This document shows positions 17,473 through 52,278 of a stretch of 52,278 bases of DNA, piece by piece; the stretch's first letter is position 1, and every line of letters begins with the position of its first letter. The translations under genes were made by a program, and so were the position numbers. The DNA comes from Candidatus Latescibacterota bacterium (GTDB lineage: Bacteria > Latescibacterota > UBA2968): positions 86,278-138,555 of the forward strand of contig JAYODI010000006.1 of the NCBI GenBank assembly GCA_038279365.1, in the 5' to 3' direction. The notes beneath the pieces were generated by a model that saw nothing but the letters and a program-made list of their open reading frames with translations, made no database searches and was not told the origin of the DNA.

Positions 17473-17497
17473 GTCTCCTTTCCAAAAGGACGTTTGA

Positions 17498-19968: not shown

Positions 19969-19969
19969 A

Positions 19970-21421: not shown

Positions 21422-21433
21422 ATTATTATGATC

Positions 21434-22798
21434 TCAATTTTTCCATTTCGGACTTTGGAACAATGTCTCCAACTCATCCAAAACATCAGACAAAACAAAT
21501 GCAATGACGGTATCTCCGGCCAAAATGGTATCGCCACCGCGAGGTACCAATACTTCATCTCCGCGTACCAATGCACCAATAATAACACCCTTTGGAAAAC
21601 GCAACTCATCACCCAAGATGCGATTTACTGCTGGCGCATTGGGCTCTGCGGTCAACTCGACAACTTCGGCATTCCCATCTTGCAACAACGCCATTGAACG
21701 AATATTCGAACCTCCCGCCAAAGTCAAAATACGGTTGCCCGTCAAAATACGTGGGCTCACCGCATGATCAATCCCTACGCGCTCCACCAATGGAGCATAA
21801 TCTGCCCGGTTCACAGCCACAACAACATGCGCCACACCCATTTGTTTGGCTTGCAAAGAAGACATCAAATTGACCTCATCATTGCCACATAAGGCCACAA
21901 ACACATCGGCATCACCTACGCGTTCTTCTGCCAATACAGACAACCGCGTTGCATCACCATGAATAATACGCGTCCCCGACAAAATGCGAGACAAAGCATC
22001 ACACCGCTCACGCACGCCTTCTATGAGCGTAACCGCAACACCACGCGTTTCCATAATTTGCGCCAACATTAAAGCCGTTGTACCTCCCCCGGCAATCACC
22101 ACACTTTCGGCACCTTCTTCCACATCTTTAAAGAGTCGACGCACCGCCCGTGCATTTCCCGATGGCATAATAACCGTTACGCGATCCCCTGCACAAACCA
22201 CATCTTCTGGCCCCGGAATGGTCATCACTGAACCACGCGAAAGCGATACAACCAAAGACTCCAGTTCGCGATCGGGAGGAAACAGATCACAGATGCGCTT
22301 ACCTGCCGCAGACGAGTCATTGGGAACCATCATTTGGCGCATTTGCACTTTTTCTTGTGCAAAACTTTCCACAGCAACTGCTGCCGGATTTTCTATGAGT
22401 TTGGCAATTTCAAATGCAGTAATCGATTGGGGGGAAATAATCATATCGATATTTAACAGATTTCGATATTCAATTTTTCCACTCTTGTGATATGCCTGAT
22501 TATAAACGCGTGCAGCAGACCTTACGGCACCCAACTGTTTGGCAGTACCTGCAGCAATCAAATTGACCTCATCACTGTTTGTGACAGCGGCCACAAGATC
22601 GGCACGCGCCACTCCTGCCATTTCCAGAATTTGTGGATTTGCACCATGTTCACAAATGGTACGAATATCCAAATTCTCTTCGGCATGCATTAACCGATTG
22701 CGATCAACATCAATCATGGTCACACTGTGCTTTTCCTGAGACAACACTTGCGCAATATGAGAACCTGCCTGCCCTGCGCCAATAACAATAACTTCCAT
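21434..22798 (-). CDS. trkA: Trk potassium uptake gating subunit (2x RCK_N/RCK_C)
   Basis: IVIGAGQAG, VTNSDEVN, second Rossmann VIAGGG, HGDAT and AVSPR; 454 aa; adjacent to trkH. Confidence 0.93.
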   Translation of the reverse strand: MEVIVIGAGQAGSHIAQVLSQEKHSVTMIDVDRNRLMHAEENLDIRTICEHGANPQILEMAGVARADLVAAVTNSDEVNLIAAGTAKQLGAVRSAARVYNQAYHKSGKIEYRNLLNIDMIISPQSITAFEIAKLIENPAAVAVESFAQEKVQMRQMMVPNDSSAAGKRICDLFPPDRELESLVVSLSRGSVMTIPGPEDVVCAGDRVTVIMPSGNARAVRRLFKDVEEGAESVVIAGGGTTALMLAQIMETRGVAVTLIEGVRERCDALSRILSGTRIIHGDATRLSVLAEERVGDADVFVALCGNDEVNLMSSLQAKQMGVAHVVVAVNRADYAPLVERVGIDHAVSPRILTGNRILTLAGGSNIRSMALLQDGNAEVVELTAEPNAPAVNRILGDELRFPKGVIIGALVRGDEVLVPRGGDTILAGDTVIAFVLSDVLDELETLFQSPKWKN

Positions 22799-22836
22799 AG
22801 ATTGCTCTTATCTCCGAAGATTGCTCTTATCTCCGA
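22799..22836. repeat. Perfect 19-bp tandem duplication
   Basis: AGATTGCTCTTATCTCCGA occurs at 22799-22817 and 22818-22836. Confidence 0.95.
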
Positions 22837-23744
22837 CGCTCTTGTTTAACCCTTCGTCTTGGAGGGTCTATGCGCAAAACAATGTTGCCACGCCGAAAGG
22901 CACGCACCGCACCCGTTGATTCAGATACGGCAATTGCAATTGATCGCGTGGTTTTTGTAATCGATGCCGCAGCCACATGCCGTGCCCCTAATCCTTTGGG
23001 CAAAACCAACCCCTTTACTTCGGCAGAAATATATCGGCCACCCGAAAGAATGACCCCATCTTCCTGAACAATAAAAGCCCCATCCATAAGCGCAACTTCT
23101 TTGACACCTTCATGGATATCGGGATTGCATATGTTTTTTTCTCTTTCGGCATACCCCCGAAAAGGATCAAAGGTCATAACCCGGGAACTGTTTGAAACAC
23201 GTTCCGAATCGCCAATGACAAACAGCGTACCAATAGGATCTCCTTCTCGGCCTTCTTGCCCAATTTCTACGGCTAAGTCTAAAACTGCTTTAACCACCTC
23301 CAAGGGCAAGTCACCGGCCAATTCCGCCACACGCAATGGATCATATCCTTCAAAACCGTGGTCCGTATCAACCACAACCATGGCATCCACATTGCGCGGG
23401 TCTAACATCCGTGTCACACATACCAAACGACTGCCGCGCCGAATGTAGCCCCCCTCCATGCCCAAAATGACACACTGTCGAACCCGTTCAAAGTGCGAAA
23501 TATCATCTGTACCAAAATCAAAATGCAAACGCTGAACACCCGTTTCTTCTATCCCACTCAAAAAACTTTTATTACGTGTAACAACCAAAGTTGTACACAC
23601 CTCATTAATTTTTTGTACAGATGCCTTTGTGATACCCGAATCGGCCACCAACAAAATCAAGTCGGCTTTCATATCTTGGGCAAATTCAGCAGCCATATCC
23701 AAAAAAATTTGTGACTGATTTCGTTTTTTAGACGACTTAGCCAT
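22827..23744 (-). CDS. dacZ: Diadenylate cyclase, DacZ-like (DisA_N/DAC domain with N-terminal extension)
   Basis: EGREG..IGTLF, DGA (ALMDGAF), GLGARH.AAA and AVSESTG; no TM helices and no HhH domain. Confidence 0.8.
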   Translation of the reverse strand: MAKSSKKRNQSQIFLDMAAEFAQDMKADLILLVADSGITKASVQKINEVCTTLVVTRNKSFLSGIEETGVQRLHFDFGTDDISHFERVRQCVILGMEGGYIRRGSRLVCVTRMLDPRNVDAMVVVDTDHGFEGYDPLRVAELAGDLPLEVVKAVLDLAVEIGQEGREGDPIGTLFVIGDSERVSNSSRVMTFDPFRGYAEREKNICNPDIHEGVKEVALMDGAFIVQEDGVILSGGRYISAEVKGLVLPKGLGARHVAAASITKTTRSIAIAVSESTGAVRAFRRGNIVLRIDPPRRRVKQERRR

Positions 23745-31260: not shown

Positions 31261-31806
31261 TTATCCAACAACATCAAAATCGTGCACGTCTTCCCCTGCC
31301 TCAACAGACAATATTTCCAAAGCGGTTGCAGCACCCTGCCCTGCAGAAATAATAGCTTGTGTACGAATTAAACGCGTATTCCAACCTGCAGCATATAAAC
31401 CTTTAATGGCTGTCTTACCATCTTCGTCGGCAACAATTCCCTTGTTCTTTTTTTCTAACCCGAAACTCTCTGCCAGTTTGGTATTGGTTCCACCTGCCAA
31501 AATCAGATACTTGCCTTCTTTGCGCTTGCCATCCGCAGTGGTTACAGCAAACCCATCCCCAGTTTTTTCTGCTCCCGTTACTTCTTCGTCTACAATTTGT
31601 GCACCTAATTTTTTAACTTGTTCTCGGGACACCCTTTGAAAATCACTACCCGTCATCTCCGGTATGCCTAAGTAATTATATAACATTGCCTTATGCATAG
31701 GCGTTGTGTTTTGTCCATAAACAGTAACCGTCATATCATTTTTTGCTAAAAAAAGCGCCGCACTCAAACCTGCAGGACCATCACCAACAATCAACACATC
31801 TGCCAT
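31261..31806 (-). CDS. Short FAD-dependent oxidoreductase, thioredoxin-reductase-like (FAD domain only)
   Basis: IVGDGPAGLSAA, NYLGIP, ILAGG, GLYAAG and QAIISAGQGA; 181 aa; RBS AAGGAAGG. Confidence 0.85.
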   Translation of the reverse strand: MADVLIVGDGPAGLSAALFLAKNDMTVTVYGQNTTPMHKAMLYNYLGIPEMTGSDFQRVSREQVKKLGAQIVDEEVTGAEKTGDGFAVTTADGKRKEGKYLILAGGTNTKLAESFGLEKKNKGIVADEDGKTAIKGLYAAGWNTRLIRTQAIISAGQGAATALEILSVEAGEDVHDFDVVG

Positions 31807-31963: not shown

Positions 31964-33316
31964 TTATTCAAAAAACAGCATCGTTTGCAAAGCTTCATTG
32001 GGCTTGAGCAAGCTCTTGTTCGTCAAAGAAGATGGCCATTGGGCCCATTTATCCGTCCAAGAAAACAATTCACCCTTTGCTGGTGTGCGAATATATCGCC
32101 CTCCAGGGAGCATGACCTCAAGCACCAAATTTCCCAGGGTACAATGACATTCAGATGGAGGGTGTATAACCAAGCGATTCTCCATCTGCAAGCCATCCAA
32201 CAAATGCCCGGGTAATTCCATGCGCGCAGGAGCAAAACCATCGCGAATGGGTAACTCACCAATACGTGCACCATTGAGAGAAGCTTTCAATCCAGATAGA
32301 CCGTCCCAAGCACAAAATCGCAAAAATGCACGCCGAATACGGCTTAAATCTGTTGGAATCAATTTTGAAGGCGCACTTTGATCCATCATCCAAAAATCAA
32401 GCATATCTCCGGGTTGCTCCCAAGCCACAACCGCCTCAGCCCCCCGATTGAGATGGTGCCACTCAGCAACCACTTCTTGTGCCCCCACTTTAACCATAAA
32501 CCAACCTGGGGCTGTGTTTTCCAAATAACCTGGCCAACAAGCCAAAAGATCATCCTCTCCTGGCAAAAATGCCTGCACTTGATTCAAGGCCAACGGGGGT
32601 TCATCAGAAACACCAATCATGGCTCCCATGAATTGAAATACGGGTAACCCTTGCGTACGGTGCAAAATAACGCTCTGATTATGTGTGTGCCCACAAAAGT
32701 AAGCATCTACATCAAAATCATCGAGGATACGCACCATATTTTTATGGAACTCAAGATGTGTAAAAAATTGACGCGCAACAGGCCAAATTGGATGATGTCC
32801 GAATACAAAAGTATGTTGAAAACCCTTTTTTACCCCGGCTTTTAGCACGCGCTCTACCCATAAACATTGCTCTTGAGACCAGGCATCAGTGTCAAGGATC
32901 AAAAATAAGCAGCCATCCACCTCAAACGAAAAATAACTCTCATCGAGTTCTATATTCAACAAAGATGCCATCGTTGGATGTACAACAGCTTTAAATGCAT
33001 CATATGCATCGAGATTGCCACGTGCATAAACAATAGGAATTTCACAGGTCGAAAAAAATTCCAATGCTGCGCGTAAATCTCCAACAAGCTCGTTCGGATC
33101 TCCTGGTTCTACCAGATCACCCGTAATAAAAATAAAATCGGGGTCCAACTCACGCAAAGCATCCATCATTGGGGCAAGTGCATAAGTCACATTTTCAAGG
33201 TATGCCTCGACCTCAAGCGGCGTATCTCTCCGCTCAAAATGACTATCAAATTCTCGCCGAACAAAATGCGTATCACTCACAACAGCAAAGGAAAATGGCC
33301 GCTTCAAATCTTTCAC
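31964..33316 (-). CDS. Calcineurin-like metallophosphoesterase with C-terminal beta-rich domain
   Basis: SDTH, TGDL, GNLD, GHHP and GHTH. Confidence 0.8.
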   Translation of the reverse strand: MKDLKRPFSFAVVSDTHFVRREFDSHFERRDTPLEVEAYLENVTYALAPMMDALRELDPDFIFITGDLVEPGDPNELVGDLRAALEFFSTCEIPIVYARGNLDAYDAFKAVVHPTMASLLNIELDESYFSFEVDGCLFLILDTDAWSQEQCLWVERVLKAGVKKGFQHTFVFGHHPIWPVARQFFTHLEFHKNMVRILDDFDVDAYFCGHTHNQSVILHRTQGLPVFQFMGAMIGVSDEPPLALNQVQAFLPGEDDLLACWPGYLENTAPGWFMVKVGAQEVVAEWHHLNRGAEAVVAWEQPGDMLDFWMMDQSAPSKLIPTDLSRIRRAFLRFCAWDGLSGLKASLNGARIGELPIRDGFAPARMELPGHLLDGLQMENRLVIHPPSECHCTLGNLVLEVMLPGGRYIRTPAKGELFSWTDKWAQWPSSLTNKSLLKPNEALQTMLFFE

Positions 33317-33416
33317 ACATCACTCCCGTAACGGTAGCTATAGACCAACACTTAACAGAAACTACAATGTAACCTTTTTTTGCCCCCCTAACAAGAACAA
33401 GACAAACAGGCTACAT

Positions 33417-33450
33417 AAAAAAACGAGGTTCTGAAGAACCTCGTTTTTTT
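33417..33450. terminator. Intrinsic terminator
   Basis: A7-CGAGGTTCT-GA-AGAACCTCG-T7. Confidence 0.85.
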
Positions 33451-33455
33451 GCTCG

Positions 33456-33950
33456 TTATTCCCTGTCATTTCCACCATCTCGACGCCCACCACTGCCTCG
33501 TCCTCCAGGACCGCCCTGCCCACCACGCCCACCACGCTGATTCATTTCTTGCATATATCCCTTTAATGCCTCAACCTGATTTGCATCCAGAACTGCCGTT
33601 AACTTTTGCGTCATTTGACCACGCAATTTTCTCACTTCGGTCATCGTAGTTTCACGATCATTGTTGTCACCCAGCTTTTTAACCAGTGCTGATCGTTCTA
33701 CATAAACAGCCTTGAGCGCATCGCGAACTTTGCCCAACTGTTCATAGCTTAAACCAACCTTTTCATCAAATGCCAGAAACCCCAAAATTTGCTCAATGGG
33801 AATAGAACGCATGGCCATCATAGCCCCTCCTCGCCCTCCTGCACCACGTTCCCCCTGTCCCCCTTCTGGCTGTGCCCACACATCCAATGCCCCAAACATA
33901 AACAGAGCGGTAGCAATCATCACAAAACGATTTATTCGCTGCATCATCAA
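33456..33950 (-). CDS. Secreted helical protein with Gly/Arg-rich ends (Spy/CpxP-like)
   Basis: Signal peptide (VWA-Q), LSYEQ and VLDANQ (LTxxQ-like), GGRGG tails; RBS AAGGAG. Confidence 0.6.
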   Translation of the reverse strand: MMMQRINRFVMIATALFMFGALDVWAQPEGGQGERGAGGRGGAMMAMRSIPIEQILGFLAFDEKVGLSYEQLGKVRDALKAVYVERSALVKKLGDNNDRETTMTEVRKLRGQMTQKLTAVLDANQVEALKGYMQEMNQRGGRGGQGGPGGRGSGGRRDGGNDRE

Positions 33951-33975
33951 CTCCTTTGATTAGATTCAATACCCC

Positions 33976-34027
33976 AAAAAATTCGGGCAAGTGACGTGCC
34001 TATTAGACATCGCTTGCCCGAAAAAAA
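33976..34027 (-). terminator. Hairpin downstream of the OPT-like gene, overlapping a possible ECF promoter
   Basis: Minus strand TTCGGGCAAGCGA...TCACTTGCCCGAA followed by TTTTTT; GGAACTT-N17-GTCTAA overlaps it. Confidence 0.55.
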
Positions 34028-34114
34028 GTTCCCGCATTTTTTAAAAAAACTTGACCACTTCCATCAATGGCTAAAGCACACTTCCAGAAACCCTCAACAG
34101 AAGACATTTTCAGA

Positions 34115-36163
34115 TTAAAAAACCACCTGTGAAACGGCTTTAGAAATTAGGGCAACGGCAATAGATGTCATACCAATAAGCCCCATGCCGCACGAATAAC
34201 CCGCCAGCAAAATAGGCGCATAAGCCTTCCACTTCGATTCGCCAAAACGCTTAGCAAAATAAAACTTTCCAAGAATTGCCCCAGCAAAATTCAAGATCAC
34301 AAAATGTGGCCACTGTGCCAAACCGTTTACGAAGCCAAAAAAGACCAACGTAGGCACCTTTACGGCGGCAAGCACCAAATAAAGCAACCCACCCGTTACA
34401 AACCCAGCCCCCACATAAGCAGGTTTAATGATATCACTTAAGAGTTCCATACCGGCTGCCCCCTGAAACTCTCCTGGGGGTAAGGTTGCTTTAAGCCACA
34501 TGGTTTGCATGGTGGCTTCAAAGGGCCAAAACATTTGCACATAAGGATAGGTCGATGATGGAATGGGGCCCAATCTCCAAATGAACTCCCAAAACACAAA
34601 GCTACAAAGGAAGATCACAAAGGAGGTCAATGCCACCATTTTGATATAACCTTTAAACTTAGTTTTGGTTAATTCCAACTGTTTGAATTGACGCACGGCC
34701 AATCCATGATCATGGAGCGGAAGGGGCGCAAACCAAACGGCCACACCTTTATAACCAGAAAGGAAAATCGCAGCTTCACGAATATAAGGAATACTGGCCC
34801 CATAAGGACTGCCCGTTAACCCAATCATACGCGCACCAATATAAGACGAAATGGGGGTATAAATAAACGCGAAGAAAACCAACCAGCCCCAATGAAACTC
34901 AGGTACAAGCCACCGACAAAGGCCAATGGTTGCCACCGTTGCAATCACCCACAAAACCAGAGGCCACTTCATGGGCAAATCACCACGACCTTCAGGCAAA
35001 TCTTCAAAATCGATCTTTACGGTATGATGCCCCGTTTCCTTCAATGCCTTGCGTTGGGCAAGCAAAGTCTTACCCACCATATAAAACCCAGTAAAGGCAA
35101 TGATCAAAGAGGTGCCAATACCAAAGCTCAACCAAAAGTCGAATCGGTTAGAAATGCTTGCGGGAATGGCGGTCATACCAGGAGACCAGCGTTGCAAAAT
35201 ATCAAAATGATACAATGTAGGATTGATCACCAAGTTGCCCAACACCGCGCCAATAAAAGAACCAATAACAACATAAAATGGCAGAACAAAACCAATCAGC
35301 AAGTGCCCCAAATCCGTTCCCAAACCAAATACTGCCGCTGGCAAAATGGTTTTGACTTCAGCTGTAAAATCAATAAAAGGAATGGGCAATATTTGTACGG
35401 TTTCCGTTAAGAAAATACCCGACAAAGTCGGCACCACAACATAAAGCAGCCCCCACACCAAACCAATACAAGTGCCCGTGCTAAACACACGCCAACGCCA
35501 TCCTTCAGATTTTGATGAAGTCTCAGCCAATGCGGTTACACCACGTGCATGAACAGGTTCCATGGGAAATGGCAATTGCTCAATATCACTGGTGACCCGA
35601 TACATGACATACCCAAATGACAACCGTGCCGTTTGGTTAATAATCATCACCAAGAACAAAATAAGTACAGGCAGGGCCCAATCCCAATGCATAAAGGTGC
35701 GCTCTGCATAAACAGGCGAATCAAGTGCAGGAGCAACCCAGCTTGGAATATATTTCCCCAAACCTTCCGCTGCCGGCGACTGAAGAAGATATTGATCCCA
35801 AATCAATCCACCAAAAGGACCACCATAGGTGTGTGCGCCACTTCCTAAACGCACACCTATGCCTAATAGACCAGCAGCTACCCAATAAATAATGAGAATT
35901 TCTTGGGTTTTAAGCTTAACAAATGATCGCTTCGCAATTTCTAAAAAGAGAATGATCGTGACCCATTCAGACGCACCAGCCATACTTTGCCCGGTGACGA
36001 GGCCCAAATAAATCGCCCCAGGCAACATCACGATGCCTACAAACAGAATGGCCCAAATCGTTTTCCATCCAAAACCATCTTCATACGGCGCACTTTCAGG
36101 CATAATATCGTCGTATTGCGCCATGTCCTCTTGTTCTTTTGTATCTTTGGGTTCAGTTGCCAA
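34115..36163 (-). CDS. OPT/YSL-superfamily-like multi-pass membrane transporter
   Basis: 682 aa with well over a dozen hydrophobic segments, YEDGFGWKT and DIEQLPFPM (OPT-like LPFP motif); TTG start with GGAGG upstream. Confidence 0.65.
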   Translation of the reverse strand: MATEPKDTKEQEDMAQYDDIMPESAPYEDGFGWKTIWAILFVGIVMLPGAIYLGLVTGQSMAGASEWVTIILFLEIAKRSFVKLKTQEILIIYWVAAGLLGIGVRLGSGAHTYGGPFGGLIWDQYLLQSPAAEGLGKYIPSWVAPALDSPVYAERTFMHWDWALPVLILFLVMIINQTARLSFGYVMYRVTSDIEQLPFPMEPVHARGVTALAETSSKSEGWRWRVFSTGTCIGLVWGLLYVVVPTLSGIFLTETVQILPIPFIDFTAEVKTILPAAVFGLGTDLGHLLIGFVLPFYVVIGSFIGAVLGNLVINPTLYHFDILQRWSPGMTAIPASISNRFDFWLSFGIGTSLIIAFTGFYMVGKTLLAQRKALKETGHHTVKIDFEDLPEGRGDLPMKWPLVLWVIATVATIGLCRWLVPEFHWGWLVFFAFIYTPISSYIGARMIGLTGSPYGASIPYIREAAIFLSGYKGVAVWFAPLPLHDHGLAVRQFKQLELTKTKFKGYIKMVALTSFVIFLCSFVFWEFIWRLGPIPSSTYPYVQMFWPFEATMQTMWLKATLPPGEFQGAAGMELLSDIIKPAYVGAGFVTGGLLYLVLAAVKVPTLVFFGFVNGLAQWPHFVILNFAGAILGKFYFAKRFGESKWKAYAPILLAGYSCGMGLIGMTSIAVALISKAVSQVVF

Positions 36164-36242
36164 AATTGCCTCCAGAAAAAATCACCAAAGCAACAAATTT
36201 ACGGTCATTCCGTCTCGTGATTTTAAATTGTTAAAAACCTGT

Positions 36243-39200
36243 TTAGACACTTGTTTCAGCTATGCTTTGGTTAGCAAGAATCTTCTTGCCATCTTCTGCA
36301 TAGGTAAATTTCACTTCTCCTGGAATGGTTCGCCATACCAAGAATCGTTTGCGCAGCACATTCAAGAAGCCACGGTTGATCCGCTTCCAAGAGGCCACAT
36401 CACCACTGAGGCGATTGATAATCACCTCAATTTTATAAATATTGTGCTCACCCGTAGGAATCGCCTTGAGTTGTACTTCTTGACTTATTCCTAAGTCATA
36501 AGGGGCCAACCATGCTGTTAGATCAATATTATATTGTGGCTCACCAGCCATATCCTCAGACCAAAACTTGACGTGATCTGCAACAAAATCGCCCACAGAC
36601 CCCTCGCCATACGACTCAAAGACGCGGGTTAAATACATATACATACCCAACACTTCGGCACCACCAACTGTAAATGGAAAATCGAAAACCCATTTATCGC
36701 CTTCTGGGTCAGGAAACTCCCACTTACGCGTCACATCAGGCACCGCCATATCACCTGCTTTTTTGGCCGGATAAAGTGTAGATAAAAATACCGTTGCCAT
36801 AACAATAAGGGTCGCCGAAATCGCTGAAAGGGATGAGTAATTTAACTCCAACCCACCCAATAGCCCCTGATTGTAAAGGACCAACACCAACACTTGCCCA
36901 ATGAGATACCCAAACACAGCCCCCAATGTCGCAAACACGCCTGCTTCGGCCATAAACAAAGCGGCTATGTGATTGGGAGCCAACCCCACCGACGAATAAA
37001 TACTGATTTCATTAAACCGCTCATAAACAGCGCCCATCATTGTATTTAGCACAATCAACGCAGCAATGAGAATGGGAATGAACAAATTGCCCAAACCGGA
37101 TAATGAGGTTGAACCAATTGAACTATATACGGTCACACCTTTACCTTGCCCTACAAACATTGTCAAAGATACACGGGTCATAAACTCTTCAATGTCTTTG
37201 ACAAAATTCGCTTTCAATTGGCCTTGTTCGTCTCTAAAGTTGGCAATGGCAACAGATGCCAAAACGCCCCCAACATCCAAAACGTATTGATATGGCACAA
37301 TGAGCACATTTGTTGATTCAAGATGTGTAAAGGTCTCAATCGGTGCTGCTGCGACCACACGCGGATCTTGATCTTGTGCATCAGCCAAATCGTCTTTTTC
37401 TTTTACCGTGTCAACAGGTGTTAACTTTTCATCATCCAAATCTTTAAACTTATTGAATGCATCCGAGTCAACAATTCCGATCACCGTAAAAATTTGGCCT
37501 TGCATTTCAATTTTTGCAGTGCCTGCATCTTCTGGAAATATCCCAACCAGTTCGGCCAAATCGTTTGGTAACAAACATACAAACTCTTCGCCTGGTTCAA
37601 ACCAACGCCCGCTCATCAAAAATTTATCAACACCCGTAATTTTGGGTTCATCGGATGTTAAACCAAGCAAAGCATTGACAAAACTATCTTTACCAGTTGT
37701 AATCCCCACATCAAAATCAATATACGTTTCGCGCACGCCCATATCTGCCGTGGTTTCTGTAATGCGCGAAAAATTCACATAGGCACGCTCACCCCGAACC
37801 TGAGACATATACCAAGACCTCGGTACAATATCTGCTCGACCTTCAAAACCACTGTTCAAATAACTCAACACAGATTCTTGCATGCCACGCCAAGAACGAT
37901 CTCTCACCAAAGAACCCTGGTATGACGGATTGTTATCGCGAGGCAATTTATAAAACTTCAAAGATGTTTGAACAGATGTAAATGACAACGTTGTAAAAGT
38001 CAATAACGTCAGTGTGATGCCCGTTAAGGCCGTGCGAAGTGGGCGTTTGCGCAGGTTAGAAATACCCAACACAACCGCAGCTGACGTTGCACTTAAACGC
38101 CCCACATCGGCTTCGTAGTTGCCCGACGAAGCCTGTTTCATTTTGCGCACCTCTTCGCCAAACTTCGACACCACAATGACCATCGCCACACCACCCAATG
38201 CCATAATCACAAATGCCAAGAAAATAATATATGGCGAGTTACTCAATTGGAATGCGGGATGAACAAACCGCAAAATCAGGAAGAACAAGAAAAAGAAAAT
38301 TGCAAACCATGCCAAGCGCCACGTAATACTTGAAGCGCCAACAAACAAACGCTCGATGAAGAATGAAAATGGCAACAATAAAATGAAGTAGAAAATAATA
38401 CCCCGCACAGTATCATTGGCCGTAGACATCACTTCAGGATAACCACGAGCTTCTAAACCCCAAGCACGCCGAGATGCAGAAACAAAGCCCTCATAATTGA
38501 GATCTGCCAAATGCGCGCGTGCCTCTATCAACGCATCACGTGCACTATTATGCAACATTGTGAGGCGGTTATTTTCAATGCCATATTGAGCCAATTGCTT
38601 CATGCGCACATCATCAATCACCCACATATCTTTCGCTGCTTTATAAGAAGGCTGGAATATAACACCAGGTTCGTATCCCTCCCCACGTGCACGTTCCAAT
38701 AATTTTTCATCCACTTGTTTCAAATTGATCGGATTGTCCAAAAGCTCTTGTGGCGCATTGATAAGCAAAAATTTCACGCCAAACAATCCAGTACTCATCA
38801 AAACCTTTAACCGTTCAGCCTTGCCAGATACATGATCCAAACGAGAAAAAGCAACGGCAGCCCGTGTTACATTGCCTTCTTTTGTACTTTGGTTTTGAAT
38901 ATAGGAATAACTGTATTCTATCGGTTGTGTATCATTGGCGTTTAATACGGTCATAAAATCAAGTGCAGACAAATAGCTTGAGTCAATGATTTCAAAAACA
39001 CTCAATGGCGCACATTTAAAAAGTACAGCCATCATCTCATTTTCCCACCACCCATAACGCTGTGTAATGGGAAACTTTTTGTCGCCTTCAGAACCCAAAT
39101 CTGGAGCCGAAACGATACGTCCCTCATCGTTTATTTCATACGCTAAAATGCGATTCGAAAAACGATTGCGCATAATTTCAAAATGAAAACGCCCAGTCAA

Positions 39201-41117
39201 TTCAACATCGGACCGTGGCCCGAACAAATGGGCATCAATATGTTGAGGATCATTAGCCTGTGCAATGTCATAAATAGGGCCTTCGCTGGCCTTATCAACA
39301 ATAAGGGTTCGCACACCAGCATTACTCCCAAATGAACCCGGTTGCTGATAGGTCACAATCGCACCCGTTACAGGTACACGCGGCAAAGCAAAATCGACAT
39401 TGCGATCAAACCACAAAATACGCCCTTCTAAACTATGACCTCGATCTTGCAATTTCAATTTAGAAACTCTGAAAAACTCTGGATCTTCTCCCGCTTTAAG
39501 CAACGCGCCAACTGTGGTTTGAACCTGCTTGGTCAAGTTTGCGAAATTGACAAATTCTAGACGGTCATTGGGTGTATCAACGACGCGTCGCACAGTAGAT
39601 GGTGTGGCCAAAGTAATGCCTTCTTTGCCTACAAAAGTCACCGCTTCGCTGTCAAGCCCCAAGTGAACAGGCATATAATTTTTCCAAGTTCGCTTAGGTG
39701 GCGCAATTGCATCTACATGGCGCACACCCTGCCCTGGAAAAACTTTGGCCATATATCCGTCAAATTTATCTGCATAAGGTGCCAATAAGTTGTTCAAGTA
39801 GTTATCTGTGCGCCAATTTGCATTGTCAAATGTGCCATGTGAAAAACTGGCAATCTGATCGGATTCGCTGGATAAGTCTAAACCAACAAACAAACGAAAA
39901 TCAATCTTGGGACCTAAAGTTTGTAAACATTCAGATGCAGGTTTTTTAGCCTGGCAGGCCAAACAATATTGGCGGGTATCCAAAGCATCGTTGTCTTGAC
40001 AAGCAAGTGACTCGTGGTCTGGAATAAGCTCTCTAAAATGCTCACTTTCTCGAGAATGTCGAAATAAGAAATCATTGATTCCTGCCAACCCCTGAAAGTG
40101 TGCCCCCGTTGCCAAAAACATCACAGAATATTTGGGTGGATTTTGTTTTAATATTTTGGCTGTATGTAAAAGTGCTGCAATACCCGTAGCATTTTCAGCA
40201 CCTGGTGCAACCGCAGGGACAACCGAAATGGCATCGTAAAAACTGCTCAACACAATTTGCTGCTCAGACCATTTTCGCTCTTGACGTTCGGTAATAAAGT
40301 CATCCACTCCGGGCAATGTTGCATAAATATTCCACGAAGGCACCTTCTCCCAATCCATCTTGCCAGTCAAGGTCACTTCTTTATCACCCGCCTTTGCCAA
40401 AGCCACGAGACGGTTGGCGTCCCCCCCCTCAACCCAATAACGCGGTACGTCGACAGGCACTTGAAGAAATTTATCTAAGGCTTCTCCATGGGTGACACGG
40501 CCATTATCAAAAAAAATAATGGCCTGAGCACCCAACATGCGTGGGTTTAAATAACTCTGACCACAATCAAAATCCATCAACACGATACTGCCTTCTACCA
40601 ATTTTCCATTTAATTCCTCAAAAGAACCTTTTCCACCATAGATCAAATTACCACGAACCCCATTTTTAGGTAACGTCGGTGTTTGAACATGATTAGGCCA
40701 AAGTCCATATAGTCTTACAGAGCCCTGCTCACCCAAGTCTAATGCAGCACCCTTGTCTACCGGCACCGTTACATAATGCCCCTCAATCGTAATATTTTCC
40801 AAACCAATTTCTTCAAAAGCCGACTTGACATATTCAAATGCTTGTCGATGCCCAGGATAACCTGGCACACGCGATCCCATAGCCGCTAAATCAGAAACGG
40901 TTTTGCGAATGTGTTCTTCTTCTAAAGACTCTGCAATGGCTCTAATTTCTCGGTCTCTTTCCGAGATTTGTATCGGTTTGAGTTCCGGAATACTTGGGCG
41001 AATGTTAAACAATTGCACAAAAAAGTTGGTTACCTGTCCCGGATTAAATATGGTAACCGAAGACAACATGAATATTGTAATCAACCAAAGCAGTGCCGTA
41101 CCAATCTTACGCATCAT
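36243..41117 (-). CDS. Large membrane protein: PA + degenerate M28 peptidase-like domain fused to a MacB/FtsX-like permease
   Basis: GSRVPGYPG, PA-like LIYGGKG, M28 fold landmarks (NIYATLPG, APGAENATG, GLAG, GLDLS), MacB-type SNLRKRPLRTALT, and FtsX motif NTMMGAVYERFNEISIYSSVGLAP..IAALFMAEA. RBS AGGAG. Confidence 0.8.
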   Translation of the reverse strand: MMRKIGTALLWLITIFMLSSVTIFNPGQVTNFFVQLFNIRPSIPELKPIQISERDREIRAIAESLEEEHIRKTVSDLAAMGSRVPGYPGHRQAFEYVKSAFEEIGLENITIEGHYVTVPVDKGAALDLGEQGSVRLYGLWPNHVQTPTLPKNGVRGNLIYGGKGSFEELNGKLVEGSIVLMDFDCGQSYLNPRMLGAQAIIFFDNGRVTHGEALDKFLQVPVDVPRYWVEGGDANRLVALAKAGDKEVTLTGKMDWEKVPSWNIYATLPGVDDFITERQERKWSEQQIVLSSFYDAISVVPAVAPGAENATGIAALLHTAKILKQNPPKYSVMFLATGAHFQGLAGINDFLFRHSRESEHFRELIPDHESLACQDNDALDTRQYCLACQAKKPASECLQTLGPKIDFRLFVGLDLSSESDQIASFSHGTFDNANWRTDNYLNNLLAPYADKFDGYMAKVFPGQGVRHVDAIAPPKRTWKNYMPVHLGLDSEAVTFVGKEGITLATPSTVRRVVDTPNDRLEFVNFANLTKQVQTTVGALLKAGEDPEFFRVSKLKLQDRGHSLEGRILWFDRNVDFALPRVPVTGAIVTYQQPGSFGSNAGVRTLIVDKASEGPIYDIAQANDPQHIDAHLFGPRSDVELTGRFHFEIMRNRFSNRILAYEINDEGRIVSAPDLGSEGDKKFPITQRYGWWENEMMAVLFKCAPLSVFEIIDSSYLSALDFMTVLNANDTQPIEYSYSYIQNQSTKEGNVTRAAVAFSRLDHVSGKAERLKVLMSTGLFGVKFLLINAPQELLDNPINLKQVDEKLLERARGEGYEPGVIFQPSYKAAKDMWVIDDVRMKQLAQYGIENNRLTMLHNSARDALIEARAHLADLNYEGFVSASRRAWGLEARGYPEVMSTANDTVRGIIFYFILLLPFSFFIERLFVGASSITWRLAWFAIFFFLFFLILRFVHPAFQLSNSPYIIFLAFVIMALGGVAMVIVVSKFGEEVRKMKQASSGNYEADVGRLSATSAAVVLGISNLRKRPLRTALTGITLTLLTFTTLSFTSVQTSLKFYKLPRDNNPSYQGSLVRDRSWRGMQESVLSYLNSGFEGRADIVPRSWYMSQVRGERAYVNFSRITETTADMGVRETYIDFDVGITTGKDSFVNALLGLTSDEPKITGVDKFLMSGRWFEPGEEFVCLLPNDLAELVGIFPEDAGTAKIEMQGQIFTVIGIVDSDAFNKFKDLDDEKLTPVDTVKEKDDLADAQDQDPRVVAAAPIETFTHLESTNVLIVPYQYVLDVGGVLASVAIANFRDEQGQLKANFVKDIEEFMTRVSLTMFVGQGKGVTVYSSIGSTSLSGLGNLFIPILIAALIVLNTMMGAVYERFNEISIYSSVGLAPNHIAALFMAEAGVFATLGAVFGYLIGQVLVLVLYNQGLLGGLELNYSSLSAISATLIVMATVFLSTLYPAKKAGDMAVPDVTRKWEFPDPEGDKWVFDFPFTVGGAEVLGMYMYLTRVFESYGEGSVGDFVADHVKFWSEDMAGEPQYNIDLTAWLAPYDLGISQEVQLKAIPTGEHNIYKIEVIINRLSGDVASWKRINRGFLNVLRKRFLVWRTIPGEVKFTYAEDGKKILANQSIAETSV

Positions 41118-41171
41118 GCAATCACTCCTGTGCTGTCAACCTAACAAGTCAATATCAACGATGGAAATCCT

Positions 41172-41200
41172 ATGCTAATAAATAAATGCTGGGATGTCAA
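41172..41200 (-). promoter_or_regulatory. Sigma70-type promoter of the 1624-aa gene
   Basis: Minus strand TTGACA-N17-TAGCAT, about 55 nt upstream of the ATG. Confidence 0.6.
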
Positions 41201-41356
41201 GATTTTTCCAAATACGACGCGATACAGCATCAGTAGTATTTTCAATACTTTAAATATAAGCCCAAAACATACATCTGAATAAATAATCAGAAATATCCCA
41301 AAAAGAAACACATATATCCCCAAATCCTTCTCAAAGAGAAGATATTAATATAAATT

Positions 41357-41385
41357 TTGACGATCTTTGTGCATCTTTTTATTAT
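41357..41385 (+). promoter_or_regulatory. Sigma70-type promoter, divergent from the previous one
   Basis: TTGACG-N17-TATTAT. Confidence 0.6.
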
Positions 41386-41442
41386 ATTCCATCTCCGACA
41401 TTGCACTTTATGCCCGCTACTATTCCCGAAAGGAGTATCGGT

Positions 41443-42294
41443 ATGCCAGTTTGTTTCTTTAAAAAAGTTTTGCCTGTTTTATCTGTTATTTTGCTAGGAG
41501 GCCTATTGGCTTGCGGTGGCCCAGATGAAGCTATTGAAAAAAACTTGAGACAACACGTTTTGTTCTTTTCTAATTTTGAAAAAGGGGTCGATGCCTTAGA
41601 CGGAGAAGGGGAACCTCTGGCCGACTTTGACACTGCAAATACAAATCACATGACATCGGGTGGCAACCCCGATGGCTACCTCCAGTTCAATGCAGGATCT
41701 GGTGCATTGAGCTACCCTGCAAAAGCCAACTTCCCATACAAAGCCAATCAGGCATGGTCTGGCAGTGTGGCATTCTGGCTCAACATAAACCCAGCTGACT
41801 TTGAAGCGGATTACCCAGAGCCTTTCCATATTGGCAAACGTGTTTCGGGTGATTTCCCTTGGGATGACGCAGTCATGTTTATTGACTTCAAAAAGTCAGA
41901 AAATGCGTTGCGCTTTGGATGCTACCCAGATAAAACACAAGAAATAAGTGACCAGATGGTTTCAGATCGGGTCATTTCGGTGCCTGCAAATTGGAAAAGC
42001 GGCCAATGGCATCATATTACCATTACGTGGACAAACTTTAACAGTGGTAAATCAGACGCAACGTGGGCACTATATATAGATGGTGAACTCAAAGGCCAAA
42101 AAGGCCCCATCGCCCAAAAAATGACTTGGGACATCAACAACTTGGTCATGCGTTTTAATCATTATAAATTCCCGGGCCAAATAGATGAAATTGCCATTTT
42201 TTCAAAAGCTTTAACGGTTGATGAAATCAAATACCTTACAAATCCCAAACAACCGCTCAACAAACTTTTTTATAAAAAGACAGAGCGGCGTTAA
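41443..42294 (+). CDS. LamG/concanavalin A-like jellyroll lipoprotein
   Basis: Lipobox LLAC, GSVAFW, WHHITITW, LYIDG and GQIDEIAIFSKALT; AGGAG precedes the ATG at 41443. Confidence 0.82.
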   Translation: MPVCFFKKVLPVLSVILLGGLLACGGPDEAIEKNLRQHVLFFSNFEKGVDALDGEGEPLADFDTANTNHMTSGGNPDGYLQFNAGSGALSYPAKANFPYKANQAWSGSVAFWLNINPADFEADYPEPFHIGKRVSGDFPWDDAVMFIDFKKSENALRFGCYPDKTQEISDQMVSDRVISVPANWKSGQWHHITITWTNFNSGKSDATWALYIDGELKGQKGPIAQKMTWDINNLVMRFNHYKFPGQIDEIAIFSKALTVDEIKYLTNPKQPLNKLFYKKTERR

Positions 42295-48904: not shown

Positions 48905-51900
48905 TTAAAATAAGCCGGTAAAATCAATTGAGAAATATTGCTTGGGATGAAAGGTTTGCGCAAAGTCGGTTGGCCAAGCGAGATCATACCGGAACAAGAA
49001 ATATCCCATATTTGCCCGCACACCAAAACCATAACCTGCTTGCAAGTCTCGCAACTCAAACCCACCATCGCGCGCCTCCCACAACTCGACGGTATCTCGA
49101 TTGAAGGCACCACCCACATCTAAGAACAACTCGCCTTGGATATTTTGAAAGAAAAACGGCAAAGGCCACCCCATGGCCAGTTGGTGAATGAGCGGGAATC
49201 GAAATGCCAAGTTGACCAACCCATACGAATCACCCGCCATTTCGAGCAAATCTGCACCGCGCAAAGGCCACACATAAGACGAAAAGAAAATGCGACTTTG
49301 ATCGACACTGGCAATGGTAGAAAATGTGGGATTAATAGGATTGTTCACACCACCCAAGAAAAATACGGTGCTGTTTGGACCATAACTTGTACCACCTGCC
49401 AAACGCAACGCAAATGTATACTGATCCGATAGACGAACATATTTGCGATAATCCATGGTCATGGTCACAAATTCCATACCCAATGCCGAACCTTCTACAT
49501 TAAAGCGATATCGCTTACCATCAACAGCCCCAAACAAACTATAAAGTGCCGAATCGCCAACCAACGCCGCTTCTGTCACGATTGAACGTTGGCGATCTAT
49601 CAATACCCCATTAAAACCATTTCCAATGCCTTGGAAACCAGGGCTCAAACTCCCCCCTGGCGTTGCGCCCAATTGCTCGCGATCAATGGCCACGGCACGC
49701 ATGTTAAATTCTAACCGAGAAAATCGATTAAAGGGGCGCTCTAAACCACCGGCAAGCCCATAATAACGGTCGGCATGCAAAACATTGTTATTGAAAAAAT
49801 AAAACCTTGTGTGGAATAACTGACCAAAGTAATTATTTCGGCGTTTCAAAAAGGCATAACTCAGCATAAAATCACTGTCTTTTAACGAAAAATTCAAACT
49901 TGTCAAAAGCGTTGCACGATGATCCCCCATCACATCACTCACGGACAGTTGGATAAAGCTGCTCACGCCATAAAACGTATCAAAGCCAGCTTGTGCACCA
50001 AATAATTCGGGCTTGAATTTCAACTTATATTTCTTAACCTGAAACTCCTTTTCGCCCCAGTCGCGAAAGCCACCATCGTCTGTATTACTGGCATTTTCGG
50101 GATTTCCTTCAACCGGATAGGTGGTGGCCACGTTCAAACTGTCTTTTGCAATACTGGTATCGGCCACTGCAGCAGCCAATTCTGCTTGGTCCGATATCCA
50201 TACAGCAACATCATTTTCAGCCGTAGAATCCGTCACAGACACTTCTATTTCGGCATCTTTTTTTCCTTTGCGTTTTTCATCGTATTTTTCTCGCTGACGC
50301 TCAACAAAAGTTTTTGTATCTGCCCCTTCTAACCGTTTTACAAAACGCGTCTGAGGCACATCTGCCATATCTTTACGCTTATCCAACGGATCTTTTAAAA
50401 CAAACACATCCAAAGCGCCTTTATGGAAAGCATTAAATACAATTTTGCGACCATCCGTAGACCAATCGATATATTGCGCCCCAGACAACAAATTGGTAAT
50501 CGGGTAGACCGTTGAGCTATCTAAATTGGCAATGTAAATATTGCCCATACCCGTCCGATCAGAAACAAATGCCAATTGTTTGCTGTCGGGGCCCCAAACA
50601 GGATGTGCATCTTCGGCCTCATTATCAGAAACCACGCGCTTCATTTGAGACCCATCAGACTTAATGACATAAATATCATATTGGCCAAAAGGAAAGTCTT
50701 TTCCTGCCGTAAATGCCAAATTTGTATCGGGCCGATCAGAACTCATCGCAATCCATTGGCCATCAGGAGACCAATCTAAGTGCCGCTCATCATACGGATC
50801 GTTGGTCACGCGTGTGAGTGATTCATCTTCAATATCGACCACATAAATATCCGACCAACCATCTTGAATACCCGCCACTGCAATCTTTTGCCCATCAGGT
50901 GACCACGTGGGCTCAAACAATCCGTCTAACTCAAACTTAAATCGTTTACGCACCTTCTTTTTTTTCACATCAAGAATATAAAGCGTATTCTTGTTGTTCG
51001 ACTTGGCGGCAAAAGCAATGCTGCGTCCATCTGGTGACCAAGTAAATCCTGGCCGTAAAACAAACATAGACTCAAAGTTTGAAGACTTTTGACCTTCAAC
51101 CAACCGCCCTAAATCTTTGCCATCTATTGCAGACATTAAATAAATATCGAACGTGCCATTGCGATCGGTTAAATAGGCAACCTTATCGCCTTGTGGTGAA
51201 AAAGCGGCTGCCAAATTGTATGTAGAACGTCCTTCTTCTCTGTCGGTTAAATTCTTTGCAATTTCATTGGGTGTGCTGTGTAAGTTAATTTCATTCCAAT
51301 ATTGTCGTTTGAGCCACAATTGATACTTTTCATTCAATTCCTTCATGCCAAAGCCCAAAGAAGCTTTGAGGGCCTTATCTGCAGTTTTGGCCGTGCGGAA
51401 TGCCGAAATAAATTCGGCTACTTTATCTTTTCCGTATTCTTGGTCGATAAAGTAAAATACCGATGCGCCACCTGGATATGCAAAATAACTCAAAGACATT
51501 ATTTCGATTGGCGGTACATAACCCGTAATGGTGGCATCACGCATAAAATTGTCGTGTTCTTTGTGCCATCCATAACGAGAGACATATTCGGCAATACCTT
51601 CCGCAATCCACAACGGCGGCAAAGTAGCCGTTTGTGAAACCAAAGACCCCAACCACCCACCACCCGTCCACAGCTCGATGGTTACTGCATGCACAAGCTC
51701 ATGATGAATCACATGGCGCAAATCATCGTAAGACCCCGTGTAAGGAATAACCACACGGCCTTGCGCAAACTCGGTAAAACCTCCCGTAAATTCCGATTGT
51801 TCACCTGAAGAAATATTGGTCACAGAAAACCCATTATGCGAATTATATATCACAATGGGATAGCGGTTTTTCATGGTGTATTTTAATGTTTTTTCAATAT

Positions 51901-52111
51901 TGACCAATGATCTTTCCGACTCTTTGGCGACAAATTCAGCCAATTCAAGAGACCCTTCACCAAAATAAATGGTAAAGTGTTCACTCTCAATGTACAACCA
52001 ATCATATTGGCTATAATTGACTTTATTCTTGCCAAAATATTCTTGCGCAAACCCATTTGGAGGTGACAAGAAGAACAAAGCCAAAAATAAAAAGAGGCGC
52101 CAATGAACCAT
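48905..52111 (-). CDS. Omp85/BamA-like barrel fused to an N-terminal gluzincin-type peptidase and PD40/TolB-like beta-propeller
   Basis: Signal peptide, YFGKNKV, HELVH plus AEGIAEY, repeated (F/W)SPDG units, FFLGG, PLRG, GYGFGVR, RYDLAWP and a terminal F. AAGGAG precedes the ATG at 52111. Confidence 0.85.
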   Translation of the reverse strand: MVHWRLFLFLALFFLSPPNGFAQEYFGKNKVNYSQYDWLYIESEHFTIYFGEGSLELAEFVAKESERSLVNIEKTLKYTMKNRYPIVIYNSHNGFSVTNISSGEQSEFTGGFTEFAQGRVVIPYTGSYDDLRHVIHHELVHAVTIELWTGGGWLGSLVSQTATLPPLWIAEGIAEYVSRYGWHKEHDNFMRDATITGYVPPIEIMSLSYFAYPGGASVFYFIDQEYGKDKVAEFISAFRTAKTADKALKASLGFGMKELNEKYQLWLKRQYWNEINLHSTPNEIAKNLTDREEGRSTYNLAAAFSPQGDKVAYLTDRNGTFDIYLMSAIDGKDLGRLVEGQKSSNFESMFVLRPGFTWSPDGRSIAFAAKSNNKNTLYILDVKKKKVRKRFKFELDGLFEPTWSPDGQKIAVAGIQDGWSDIYVVDIEDESLTRVTNDPYDERHLDWSPDGQWIAMSSDRPDTNLAFTAGKDFPFGQYDIYVIKSDGSQMKRVVSDNEAEDAHPVWGPDSKQLAFVSDRTGMGNIYIANLDSSTVYPITNLLSGAQYIDWSTDGRKIVFNAFHKGALDVFVLKDPLDKRKDMADVPQTRFVKRLEGADTKTFVERQREKYDEKRKGKKDAEIEVSVTDSTAENDVAVWISDQAELAAAVADTSIAKDSLNVATTYPVEGNPENASNTDDGGFRDWGEKEFQVKKYKLKFKPELFGAQAGFDTFYGVSSFIQLSVSDVMGDHRATLLTSLNFSLKDSDFMLSYAFLKRRNNYFGQLFHTRFYFFNNNVLHADRYYGLAGGLERPFNRFSRLEFNMRAVAIDREQLGATPGGSLSPGFQGIGNGFNGVLIDRQRSIVTEAALVGDSALYSLFGAVDGKRYRFNVEGSALGMEFVTMTMDYRKYVRLSDQYTFALRLAGGTSYGPNSTVFFLGGVNNPINPTFSTIASVDQSRIFFSSYVWPLRGADLLEMAGDSYGLVNLAFRFPLIHQLAMGWPLPFFFQNIQGELFLDVGGAFNRDTVELWEARDGGFELRDLQAGYGFGVRANMGYFLFRYDLAWPTDFAQTFHPKQYFSIDFTGLF

Positions 52112-52278
52112 AACCCACTCCTTTGTGAAATAAATGCACAGGATCAAATACCCAAATCCAAATAAAACCTGACAGCTTAAAAGACAAAATATGATGCCCA
52201 ATTAAACACATCGAGGTAATTATAAAAAAACAAATACTTATAACCCTTGTTCCCCTAACAAAATGTCAGGTATTTACA

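Follow-up and report, generated by a model that had tools for sequence, protein, structure and literature searches.

We describe here two adjacent genes in a 52,278-nt stretch of DNA, hereafter the window, from a Candidatus Latescibacterota bacterium (assembly GCA_038279365.1, contig JAYODI010000006.1, positions 86,278 to 138,555). Gene A (36243..41117, minus strand) has an ATG start and encodes a 1624-aa fusion protein in which an exported head with an M28 aminopeptidase-like fold is joined to a MacB/FtsX-type permease. Gene P (34115..36163, minus strand) has a TTG start and encodes a 682-aa polytopic membrane protein with an OPT-like fold. Open reading frame (ORF) calls and translations confirmed both genes and the 79-nt gap between them (36164..36242), as reported in an initial annotation that a model had made from the sequence of the window. 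Our main finding is that gene A and an OPT-like gene very probably make up a conserved functional unit, as judged from their association across related genomes and from natural fusions of the two kinds of protein.

Gene A is kept together with OPT-like genes

A scan of one genome per species yielded 547 loci with relatives of A, and the counts given here cover the best 80 of them, which NCBI labels as Latescibacterota (55), Gemmatimonadota (11), Planctomycetota (3) and Handelsmaniibacteriota (1), with 10 unlabelled. Annotation of nine loci revealed proteins with DUF6785/DUF6784 domains, 640-715 aa long, as a second recurring neighbour of A. A gene was counted as OPT-like if it belonged to the P family or to DUF6785/DUF6784, and profiles of both families were run over all ORFs of the 80 loci. 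An OPT-like gene was present beside A in 75 of the 80 loci, and none of the 61 loci with 5 kb or more on each side lacked one. The co-occurrence check proposed in the initial annotation thus found the homologues together rather than apart. Its description of a "two-gene unit" holds for the pairing of A with an OPT-like gene but not for the exact composition, since 20 loci carried both kinds of OPT-like gene and 23 carried DUF6785 only, compared with 32 that carried the P family only. DUF6785/DUF6784 genes adjoined A in 43 loci, either replacing P or alongside it. The OPT-like gene lay at most 150 nt from A in 47 loci, on the same strand in 45 of these. The loci lacking one were L045, L056, L063 and L068, all with short flanks, and L051.

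The association was also followed through the phylogeny of A. A FastTree phylogeny of 77 A proteins, from which four loci with an anchor ORF shorter than 1400 aa were excluded, contained at least six deep clades with their own gene orders, including A-P, D-A-D, A-D-P, divergent D/A and P-D-A, where D denotes a DUF6785-type gene. The A-P clade of the window was the sister of the D-A-D clade, which has two DUF6785 genes. The identities of A and of P to the window proteins co-varied over 52 loci (r = 0.96), which is weak evidence because related loci share history. Two loci were found in the same assembly in 5 assemblies among the 80.

Genes flanking the pair in the window were syntenic in part of the set, namely a 164-aa ORF (21/80), a metallophosphoesterase gene (24/80) and a Laminin_G_3 gene (25/80). 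They were kept in the window's own clade only, and we therefore regard them as synteny and not as core parts of the unit. The Laminin_G_3 gene, which encodes a concanavalin-like lectin (41401..42294, plus strand), is divergent from A and lies upstream of it, and may be a clade accessory or mere synteny. Defence-type and mobile-type genes were seen near A in two other loci, as inserts at positions 14649..17956 and 22746..24176 of L060 and as HicB and PIN genes flanking A at positions 9266..9760 and 14646..15083 of L076.

Natural fusions join the tail of A to an OPT-like protein

Two fusion proteins, P0379 and P0383, both known from protein sequence alone, were found among the 150 listed matches to the cytoplasmic tail domain that ends gene A. 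P0379 (2120 aa, 35% identical to A over 1583 aa) runs from head through MacB_PCD, FtsX and tail to an acidic linker of about 28 aa and then DUF6785-DUF6784, and P0383 is a fragment with the same tail-DUF6785 join. Such a fusion of the tail to an OPT-like protein is topologically consistent in the predicted layout and is of the kind classically taken as evidence for a physical complex. Conserved linkage and fusions together indicate that the A/P pair is probably one complex, and we consider it likely that A and P, or their OPT-like equivalents, bind each other physically. A complex prediction with cut chains (A residues 880-1050 and A residues 1335-1470, with P) scored 0.05 and 0.07 against a mark of 0.32; the setup differed from that for which the method is calibrated and had no controls, and these scores weigh neither for nor against an interface.

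Gene A combines a large periplasmic head, a MacB-type module and a tail

The protein begins with a hydrophobic segment at residues 5-23 (41049..41105; this and the following coordinates are on the minus strand) with a hydropathy of 2.05 and preceded by MMRK, a predicted signal anchor or signal peptide that puts the head outside the cytoplasm. It is followed by a PA-inserted M28-like aminopeptidase-fold domain at about residues 60-545 (39483..40940), within a head segment of residues 26-545, a family-specific periplasmic region of 355 aa at residues 546-900 (38418..39482), three extra transmembrane (TM) helices at residues 903-921, 935-953 and 964-982 (38148..38417), a MacB/LolC/FtsX-type module at residues 991-1454 (36756..38147) and a cytoplasmic C-terminal tail domain of 170 aa at residues 1455-1624 (36246..36755). 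Homologues of the protein number at least 690, are 893-2842 aa long and show conservation along the full length. Apart from the N-terminal segment and the three extra helices, hydropathy peaks occurred at residues 1339-1357, 1384-1402 and 1430-1448. The MacB-type TM1 (about 1026-1046) was below the hydropathy threshold and was helical in an AlphaFold2 model covering residues 540-1624 (pLDDT 78.9, pTM 0.54). Eight TM segments place both termini in the cytoplasm and both large domains outside, which is the topology of MacB.

The domain map of the initial annotation, in which an exported PA/M28-like head, about 350 aa of unassigned sequence, extra TM helices, a MacB/FtsX permease and a soluble tail follow one another, was therefore confirmed. 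The profile searches that it suggested recovered FtsX and Peptidase_M28 in A, but MacB_PCD only in homologues of A, and gave no OPT match in P. Among 22 gene A homologues, Pfam detected FtsX in 22, M28 in 22, PA in 12 and MacB_PCD in 5. Mean column conservation was highest in the membrane parts and tail (0.74-0.79, with 0.75 for the extra TM helices), compared with 0.57-0.65 in the head, and the extra helices contained the residues Y910, P916, E922, R923, H953 and P954, invariant in 22 sequences.

The region between head and membrane was predicted to consist of a beta-rich part (about residues 560-790) and a helical stalk (about 790-900) that enters the TM helix at 903-921. Residues from about 546 to 900 had no Pfam match, and an Atlas search, with a best score of 0.80, gave no lead; residues 545-900 were matched by 20 shorter proteins, mostly partial records or from short contigs. 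Some relatives are much longer than A, at 2450-3050 aa (P0263, P0264, P0266 and P0296), and have additional N-terminal domains, which in P0296 include LysM and an NMB0315-like domain; LysM hints at peptidoglycan contact.

The aminopeptidase-like head has a remodelled site

The Peptidase_M28 match in A (residues 283-353, 30.7 bits against a cut-off of 21.3) covers only positions 10-79 of the 193 in the profile. The alignment to the PA-containing aminopeptidase 2ek8 extends over residues 65-353, and a profile of 22 A homologues matched 2ek8, YwaD, transferrin receptor and nicalin. In alignments to 2ek8 and to Aeromonas aminopeptidase chains, the M28 H-x-D motif corresponds to F293-Y294-D295 of A, the D-D motif to E308-N309 and the E-E pair to H340-F341. 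Both zinc sites therefore lack ligands, with F293 in place of His, N309 in place of the bridging Asp and F341 in place of Glu.

For 90 full-length members of the family, aligned to its profile with hmmalign, we counted the residues in the site columns. D295 was present in 87 of the 90, H340 in 83, D414 in 80 and E491 in 72, the last two positions being assigned from motif position only, and position 308 was Glu or Asp in 73. Glu at position 340 was found in none of the 90 members, and His at position 293 in 6. Together with the other substitutions, the lack of Glu at position 340 indicates that the canonical di-zinc catalytic set is absent throughout the family. The initial annotation had called the head a dead peptidase. 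It was right about the missing canonical set, and its reading was reasonable at first sight, but "dead" is too strong a word, as the replaced positions are themselves conserved, and a site remodelled for binding, or one with a mononuclear metal centre, as predicted from these columns, fits better. The top-scoring Aeromonas aminopeptidase chain, 2anp_A, has a His where other chains have the catalytic Glu; we take 2anp to be the engineered E151H enzyme, which presumably has residual activity.

The head of the window's protein also contains a 34-aa insert with four cysteines (including C-L-A-C) at about residues 367-400 (39918..40019, minus strand) of the M28-like domain. The insert was absent in the other 21 aligned homologues, and P0127 had a different insert in the same loop.

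The MacB-type module ends in a conserved cytoplasmic tail

The permease module runs in the order cytoplasmic amphipathic helix, TM1, a periplasmic domain of about 290 aa, TM2, coupling helix, TM3 and TM4. Pfam FtsX matched residues 1346-1454 with 46.7 bits against a cut-off of 25.5, and residues 1334-1457 aligned to YtrF, MacB and LolC, with LolF also among the PDB sequence matches. Foldseek assigned a probability of 1.00 to matches of the A model with MacB, LolC/E, YtrF, HrtB, YbbP and BceB. Whole-model TM-scores were low because the query has many domains, and against isolated MacB and LolE periplasmic domains TMt was 0.47-0.56. MacB_PCD had no Pfam match in A itself. The NCBIfam matches, to LolC, MacB and ADOP, were weak, and the curated cut-offs for LolC, LolE, MacB and FtsX were not reached (for example 23.4 bits against 473 for LolC, and 20.2 against 966). 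Between TM2 and TM3 lies the coupling-helix motif ERxxEI...GL.P.H, in which E1366, R1367, E1370, I1371 and G1378 are invariant.

The tail (residues 1455-1624) has an alpha/beta fold with two additional helices and the motif DxWxFDFPF. A phmmer search against 1.84 billion representatives (clusters at 50% identity) detected it in 1418 clusters at E<=1e-3 and in 1010 at E<=1e-10. In almost every one of the 150 matches listed it was C-terminal, in proteins that were mostly 1400-1900 aa and up to 3053 aa long. All 29 tail-bearing proteins scanned with Pfam contained FtsX; the three longest also contained Big_5 Ig-like repeats, and one (P0296) contained LysM. Against PDB sequences, the tail profile returned only noise and two designed proteins with zero matched stretches. 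The tail is a hallmark of the family, on the side of the membrane where ABC ATPases dock in MacB-type proteins. A split architecture was considered and rejected, as 26 tail matches of 550-1400 aa began at arbitrary residues of A (from 394 to 1212) and were read as fragments.

Gene P has the fold of the OPT/YSL superfamily

Gene P had no Pfam match at E<=1 and no NCBIfam match, and NCBIfam had no family for P homologues or for DUF6785 proteins. A profile of the P family searched against PDB sequences gave 0 matches at E<=10. The AlphaFold2 model of P (pLDDT 80.1, pTM 0.82), searched with Foldseek against the PDB, matched only barley Yellow Stripe 1 (HvYS1; 7wst and 7wsr) at E<=0.001. The match to 7wst_A had an E-value of 3.4e-9, a probability of 1.00 and TM-scores of 0.64/0.71 over about 690 columns at 14% identity; all HvYS1 matches spanned TM-scores of 0.62-0.71, and every other match was at or below 0.13. 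By its modelled fold, P is a distant member of the OPT/YSL superfamily, so that the OPT-like partner named in the initial annotation stands at the level of fold only. We take this family to be TC 2.A.67, and its characterised members carry their substrates with the proton gradient. HvYS1 is a proton-coupled, elevator-type transporter that acts alone as a homodimer (PMC9691689), in contrast to P, which is tied to A.

Sequence searches revealed a looser connection to the same superfamily. At least 1721 P homologues were found, and among the 120 listed, 9 had a precomputed PF03169 match (PF03169.21) and 9 were named "peptide transporter" by NCBI. In the Atlas clusters nearest to P, OPT was assigned to 15-33% of members, and in one Atlas OPT cluster DUF6785 was assigned to 19%. 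P and the DUF6785 proteins were similar by hhalign (probability 94.8%, E-value 5e-8, 143 columns). P itself did not match PF20581 or PF20580, and a profile of 6 DUF6785 proteins matched nothing in the window.

No ABC ATPase accompanies the unit

Genes for MacB, LolCDE and FtsEX are normally fused or adjacent to an ATPase gene. In A we detected neither a Walker A nor an LSGGQ motif, and the sole ABC ATPase in the window (13972..14910) lies about 19 kb away in a GldA/F/G-like ABC-2 operon. None of the 80 neighbourhoods had an ABC ATPase within 4.3 kb of A. ABC ATPase ORFs were present in 12 of the 80 loci, the closest 4313 nt away, and in L027, the only annotated one of the 12, the ATPase adjoins a BPD_transp_1 permease. 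The remark in the initial annotation that no ATPase is nearby thus applies to the window and, within this distance, to all 80 loci. On balance we lean towards a unit that works without any ABC ATPase.

A tentative model of proton-driven uptake and its alternatives

We tentatively favour the interpretation that A and P are subunits of one inner-membrane complex, an ATPase-less uptake unit driven by protons; that it imports a peptide-like ligand in the way described here is a slightly weaker suggestion again. In such a complex, A would bind P, or its DUF6785-type equivalents, probably via the conserved TM helices and the tail. As a tethered receptor, the head would recognise a ligand in the periplasm that has a free peptide end; its reused aminopeptidase pocket would bind this ligand or trim it slowly in a non-canonical way. 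The ligand would then pass by way of the MacB-like periplasmic domain and helices to the OPT-like subunit, which would move it across the membrane using the proton gradient, and the tail would occupy the position of the ATPase and couple both subunits. The homodimeric state of HvYS1 fits units with one or two OPT-like genes, and by analogy heterodimers may arise where a unit has two different OPT-like genes.

Several observations weigh against this interpretation. First, the linkage varies: only 47 of the 80 loci have an OPT-like gene 150 nt or less from A, the nearest one is on the opposite strand in 12 of 75, L051 has none in flanks of 4.3 and 5.0 kb, and in L060 the defence-type genes GmrSD, Fic and AAA_14/DUF4143 separate A from its OPT-like genes. 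Second, 0 of 18 members of the P family (P and 17 relatives) matched Pfam at E<=0.01, and this lack of matches, together with the HvYS1 fold match at 14% identity, leaves the fold as the sole ground for placing P in the OPT/YSL superfamily; to our knowledge, characterised OPT/YSL proteins work without accessory subunits. Third, the word "peptide" comes solely from the fold of the head and the automatic names of P homologues. Lastly, the pattern of conservation can be read differently: the strong conservation of the cytoplasmic tail exceeds the needs of a passive receptor, the conserved substituted residues D295, H340, D414 and E491 mean that the head may be catalytic and not a mere binder, and the invariant coupling-helix motif, which is the ATPase contact in MacB-type proteins, leaves room for an ATPase encoded elsewhere.

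An alternative that we consider unlikely, while taking it seriously, reverses the coupling. The OPT-like subunit would be a proton-driven motor that replaces ATP hydrolysis and drives the MacB-like module, which would extract, expel or remodel an envelope component held by the head, without anything having to pass through the membrane. For MacB-type proteins, two sources describe mechanotransmission with no transport across the inner membrane (PMC5985334, PMC11627006), and HvYS1 undergoes an elevator-like, proton-coupled movement (PMC9691689). Reverse coupling also agrees with the absence of an ATPase from 80 of 80 neighbourhoods, with the coupling-helix motif, TM helices and tail being the best conserved parts of A, with the fusions that join the tail to an OPT-like domain, and with the LysM domain in the head of one relative (P0296), which hints at cell-wall contact. 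In its strictest form, in which the ATPase of the type VII ABC fold is replaced by an OPT elevator docked on or fused to the tail and proton-driven mechanotransmission reaches the 875-residue head, we hold it to be no more probable. Outside the window's clade, the unit has no recurring neighbour that encodes a periplasmic adaptor, an outer-membrane duct or a hydrolase, and paralogous units, as in the 5 assemblies with two loci, suit nutrient uptake better than a housekeeping envelope task. Moreover, we know of no precedent for a secondary transporter that powers a type VII ABC fold.

To a similar degree we doubt that A is an ordinary type VII ABC permease with its ATPase encoded elsewhere, perhaps shared by paralogues, as is assumed for orphan FtsX-type permeases such as the ADOP family. 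On that view the OPT-like gene would be a neighbour from the same pathway, which might for instance take up again whatever A handles, and would not substitute for the ATPase. The conserved 170-aa domain after TM4, on the cytoplasmic side and found in 1418 clusters, speaks against it, as do the natural fusions that join an OPT-like protein directly to this tail and the lack of an ATPase within 4.3 kb in any of the 80 loci. MacB and LolC end soon after TM4, the FtsX match stopping 9 residues before the model end (LolC 399, MacB 648). In its favour are the invariant coupling-helix motif, the weak NCBIfam matches to LolC, MacB and ADOP ("duplicated orphan permease"), and the scope of our survey, which was confined to 25-kb neighbourhoods.

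A variant of the uptake model, differing only in catalysis versus binding, makes the head an active non-canonical metallopeptidase, so that A trims periplasmic peptides and the OPT-like subunit imports the products. That the replaced positions (D295, E/D308, H340, D414 and E491) are conserved and not drifting is consistent with such an activity, as is the His at the catalytic Glu position of 2anp_A, but neither zinc site has a full ligand set, Glu is found at position 340 in 0 of 90 members, and the profile also matches the non-catalytic M28-fold proteins transferrin receptor and nicalin, which makes this variant rather improbable in our view. Finally, that A and P are mere neighbours by descent with no functional link is very improbable: synteny alone does exist at the locus, as the 164-aa ORF, metallophosphoesterase and Laminin_G_3 genes are also syntenic in 21-25 of 80 loci, but these are confined to one clade, whereas OPT-like genes accompany A in every clade, in various orders and orientations and in 61 of 61 full-flank loci, and fusion proteins exist.

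Two other roles were rejected from the gene neighbourhoods. Neither kinase nor regulator genes recur next to A, which led us to discard a BceAB-like sensing role, and a tripartite efflux pump was discarded for want of a recurring gene for an adaptor or outer-membrane factor.

Comparison with known systems

Among known systems, A is closest in layout to the type VII ABC permeases (MacB, LolCDE, FtsEX, HrtBA, YtrEF, YbbAP and BceAB). It shares with them the FtsX domain and the order of one TM helix, a large periplasmic Porter/Sabre-like domain and three TM helices, as well as the N-terminal amphipathic helix and the coupling-helix motif. Unlike them, A has no fused or neighbouring ABC ATPase, it possesses a 170-aa cytoplasmic tail, three extra TM helices and an 875-aa upstream head, and an OPT-like protein is its obligatory partner. 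The ADOP family (TIGR03434) matched A weakly at residues 1333-1456 (15 bits against a cut-off of 622), and we take ADOP permeases to lack a neighbouring ATPase gene, as A does. However, ADOP has two FtsX repeats in about 800 aa where A has one, and it lacks the M28-like head, the tail domain and the OPT-like partner, all of which are found with A.

For the partner, the OPT/YSL protein HvYS1 shares its overall fold with P. The DUF6785/DUF6784 proteins (PF20581/PF20580) are of the same size class as P and distantly similar to it by profile, but P is not a member. Transferrin receptor and nicalin resemble the head of A in having a PA and M28-like fold with lost zinc ligands and a membrane tether, and both are presumably non-catalytic and used for binding; they differ in being eukaryotic, in having other downstream domains and no permease fusion, while in A the substituted residues are conserved. 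A functional analogy to A and P is offered by TRAP and TTT systems, in which an extracytoplasmic receptor feeds an ion-driven carrier. There is no sequence or fold relation to these systems, and their receptor is small and soluble or lipid-anchored, whereas A is an 8-TM MacB-like fusion.

No curated NCBIfam family names A or P. A literature search, which reached few subscription journals, found no paper on DUF6785, DUF6784, Latescibacteria FtsX or an FtsX-M28 architecture; like the initial annotation, which knew of no characterised system of this design, we came upon no counterpart. The folds are known, and their combination, an ATPase-less MacB-type permease with its own tail that is tied or fused to an OPT-superfamily protein, appears to be undescribed.

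MacB, LolCDE and FtsEX are textbook cases of mechanotransmission, all driven by an ABC ATPase, and the A family, which is large, conserved and mainly from Latescibacterota, keeps the permease fold and drops the ATPase. This raises the question of whether a MacB-type fold has been coupled to the proton gradient or has become a receptor for a secondary carrier; proton-driven mechanotransmission, if true, would be a new kind of system. The unit would also give a first functional context to DUF6785 and DUF6784, a branch of the OPT superfamily in bacteria, and to the hundreds of 1500-aa proteins annotated as "M28 family peptidase / FtsX-like permease" in Latescibacterota and neighbouring metagenome-assembled genomes (MAGs). 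The recurrence of paralogous units suggests a principal pathway by which these uncultured bacteria acquire substrates or handle their envelope.

Transcription signals and neighbouring genes

Genes A and P are, as predicted from their sequence context, almost certainly real, co-transcribed genes of one transcription unit. An AGGAG precedes the ATG of gene A, and a GGAGG at 36173..36169 stands 5 nt ahead of the TTG of gene P, a start shared by its homologues ("MAT..."). No terminator-like site was detected by a terminator scan within the A-P gap, which measures 31-105 nt in orthologous loci. The closest relative among the fetched loci, from a Candidatus Latescibacterota MAG, is 90% identical in A and 94% in P.

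The promoter claimed in the initial annotation, TTGACA-N17-TAGCAT (41172..41200, minus strand), is present some 55 nt ahead of the gene A start codon, matches at 10 of 12 positions and was the top-scoring site in a promoter scan. The frequency of such sites, however, was no higher than in shuffled sequence, with 15 observed in 33300..41500 against 16.0 +/- 3.4, so that the motif is well placed yet no proof of a promoter. The hairpin with a T run that had been reported after the second gene was also found, 3' of gene P at about 33976..34021 (minus strand), with the stem UCGGGCAAGCG...CACUUGCCCGA followed by AUUUUUU. This intrinsic-terminator-like element was unlisted by the terminator scan because its loop exceeds 8 nt, and the fold of the surrounding region (33970..34114) had a z-score of -2.4. 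Further downstream, between the 164-aa ORF and the metallophosphoesterase gene, a palindromic hairpin with a perfect 16-bp stem, bordered by an A run on one side and a T run on the other, occupies 33416..33451 and is of the bidirectional terminator type.

Elsewhere in the window, a Bat/MoxR-type "aerotolerance" cluster (4636..16959, minus strand) encodes BatD, a TPR protein, two VWA/BatA proteins, DUF58 and a MoxR AAA_3 ATPase, and has a GldA/F/G-like ABC-2 set (ABC_tran, ABC2_membrane, ABC_transp_aux and DUF4340) embedded in it. A potassium uptake cluster (17642..23744, minus strand) with TrkA-type gating proteins, TrkH and an ion channel with TrkA_N/C domains adjoins a gene whose product carries a diadenylate cyclase (DAC) domain of the DisA type, the usual link between cyclic di-AMP and potassium. 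A 181-aa ORF (31261..31806, minus strand) contains only the ends of a pyridine nucleotide-disulphide oxidoreductase, its residues 3-33 and 51-141 being matched against profile positions 180-274 of 291, and may have been shortened or have decayed. A second large exported peptidase-like protein, of 1098 aa (48905..52201, minus strand), combines Peptidase_MA_2 with PD40/beta-propeller repeats. Most long ORFs of the window are on the minus strand, and every 2-kb bin has a negative GC skew (-0.09 to -0.31).

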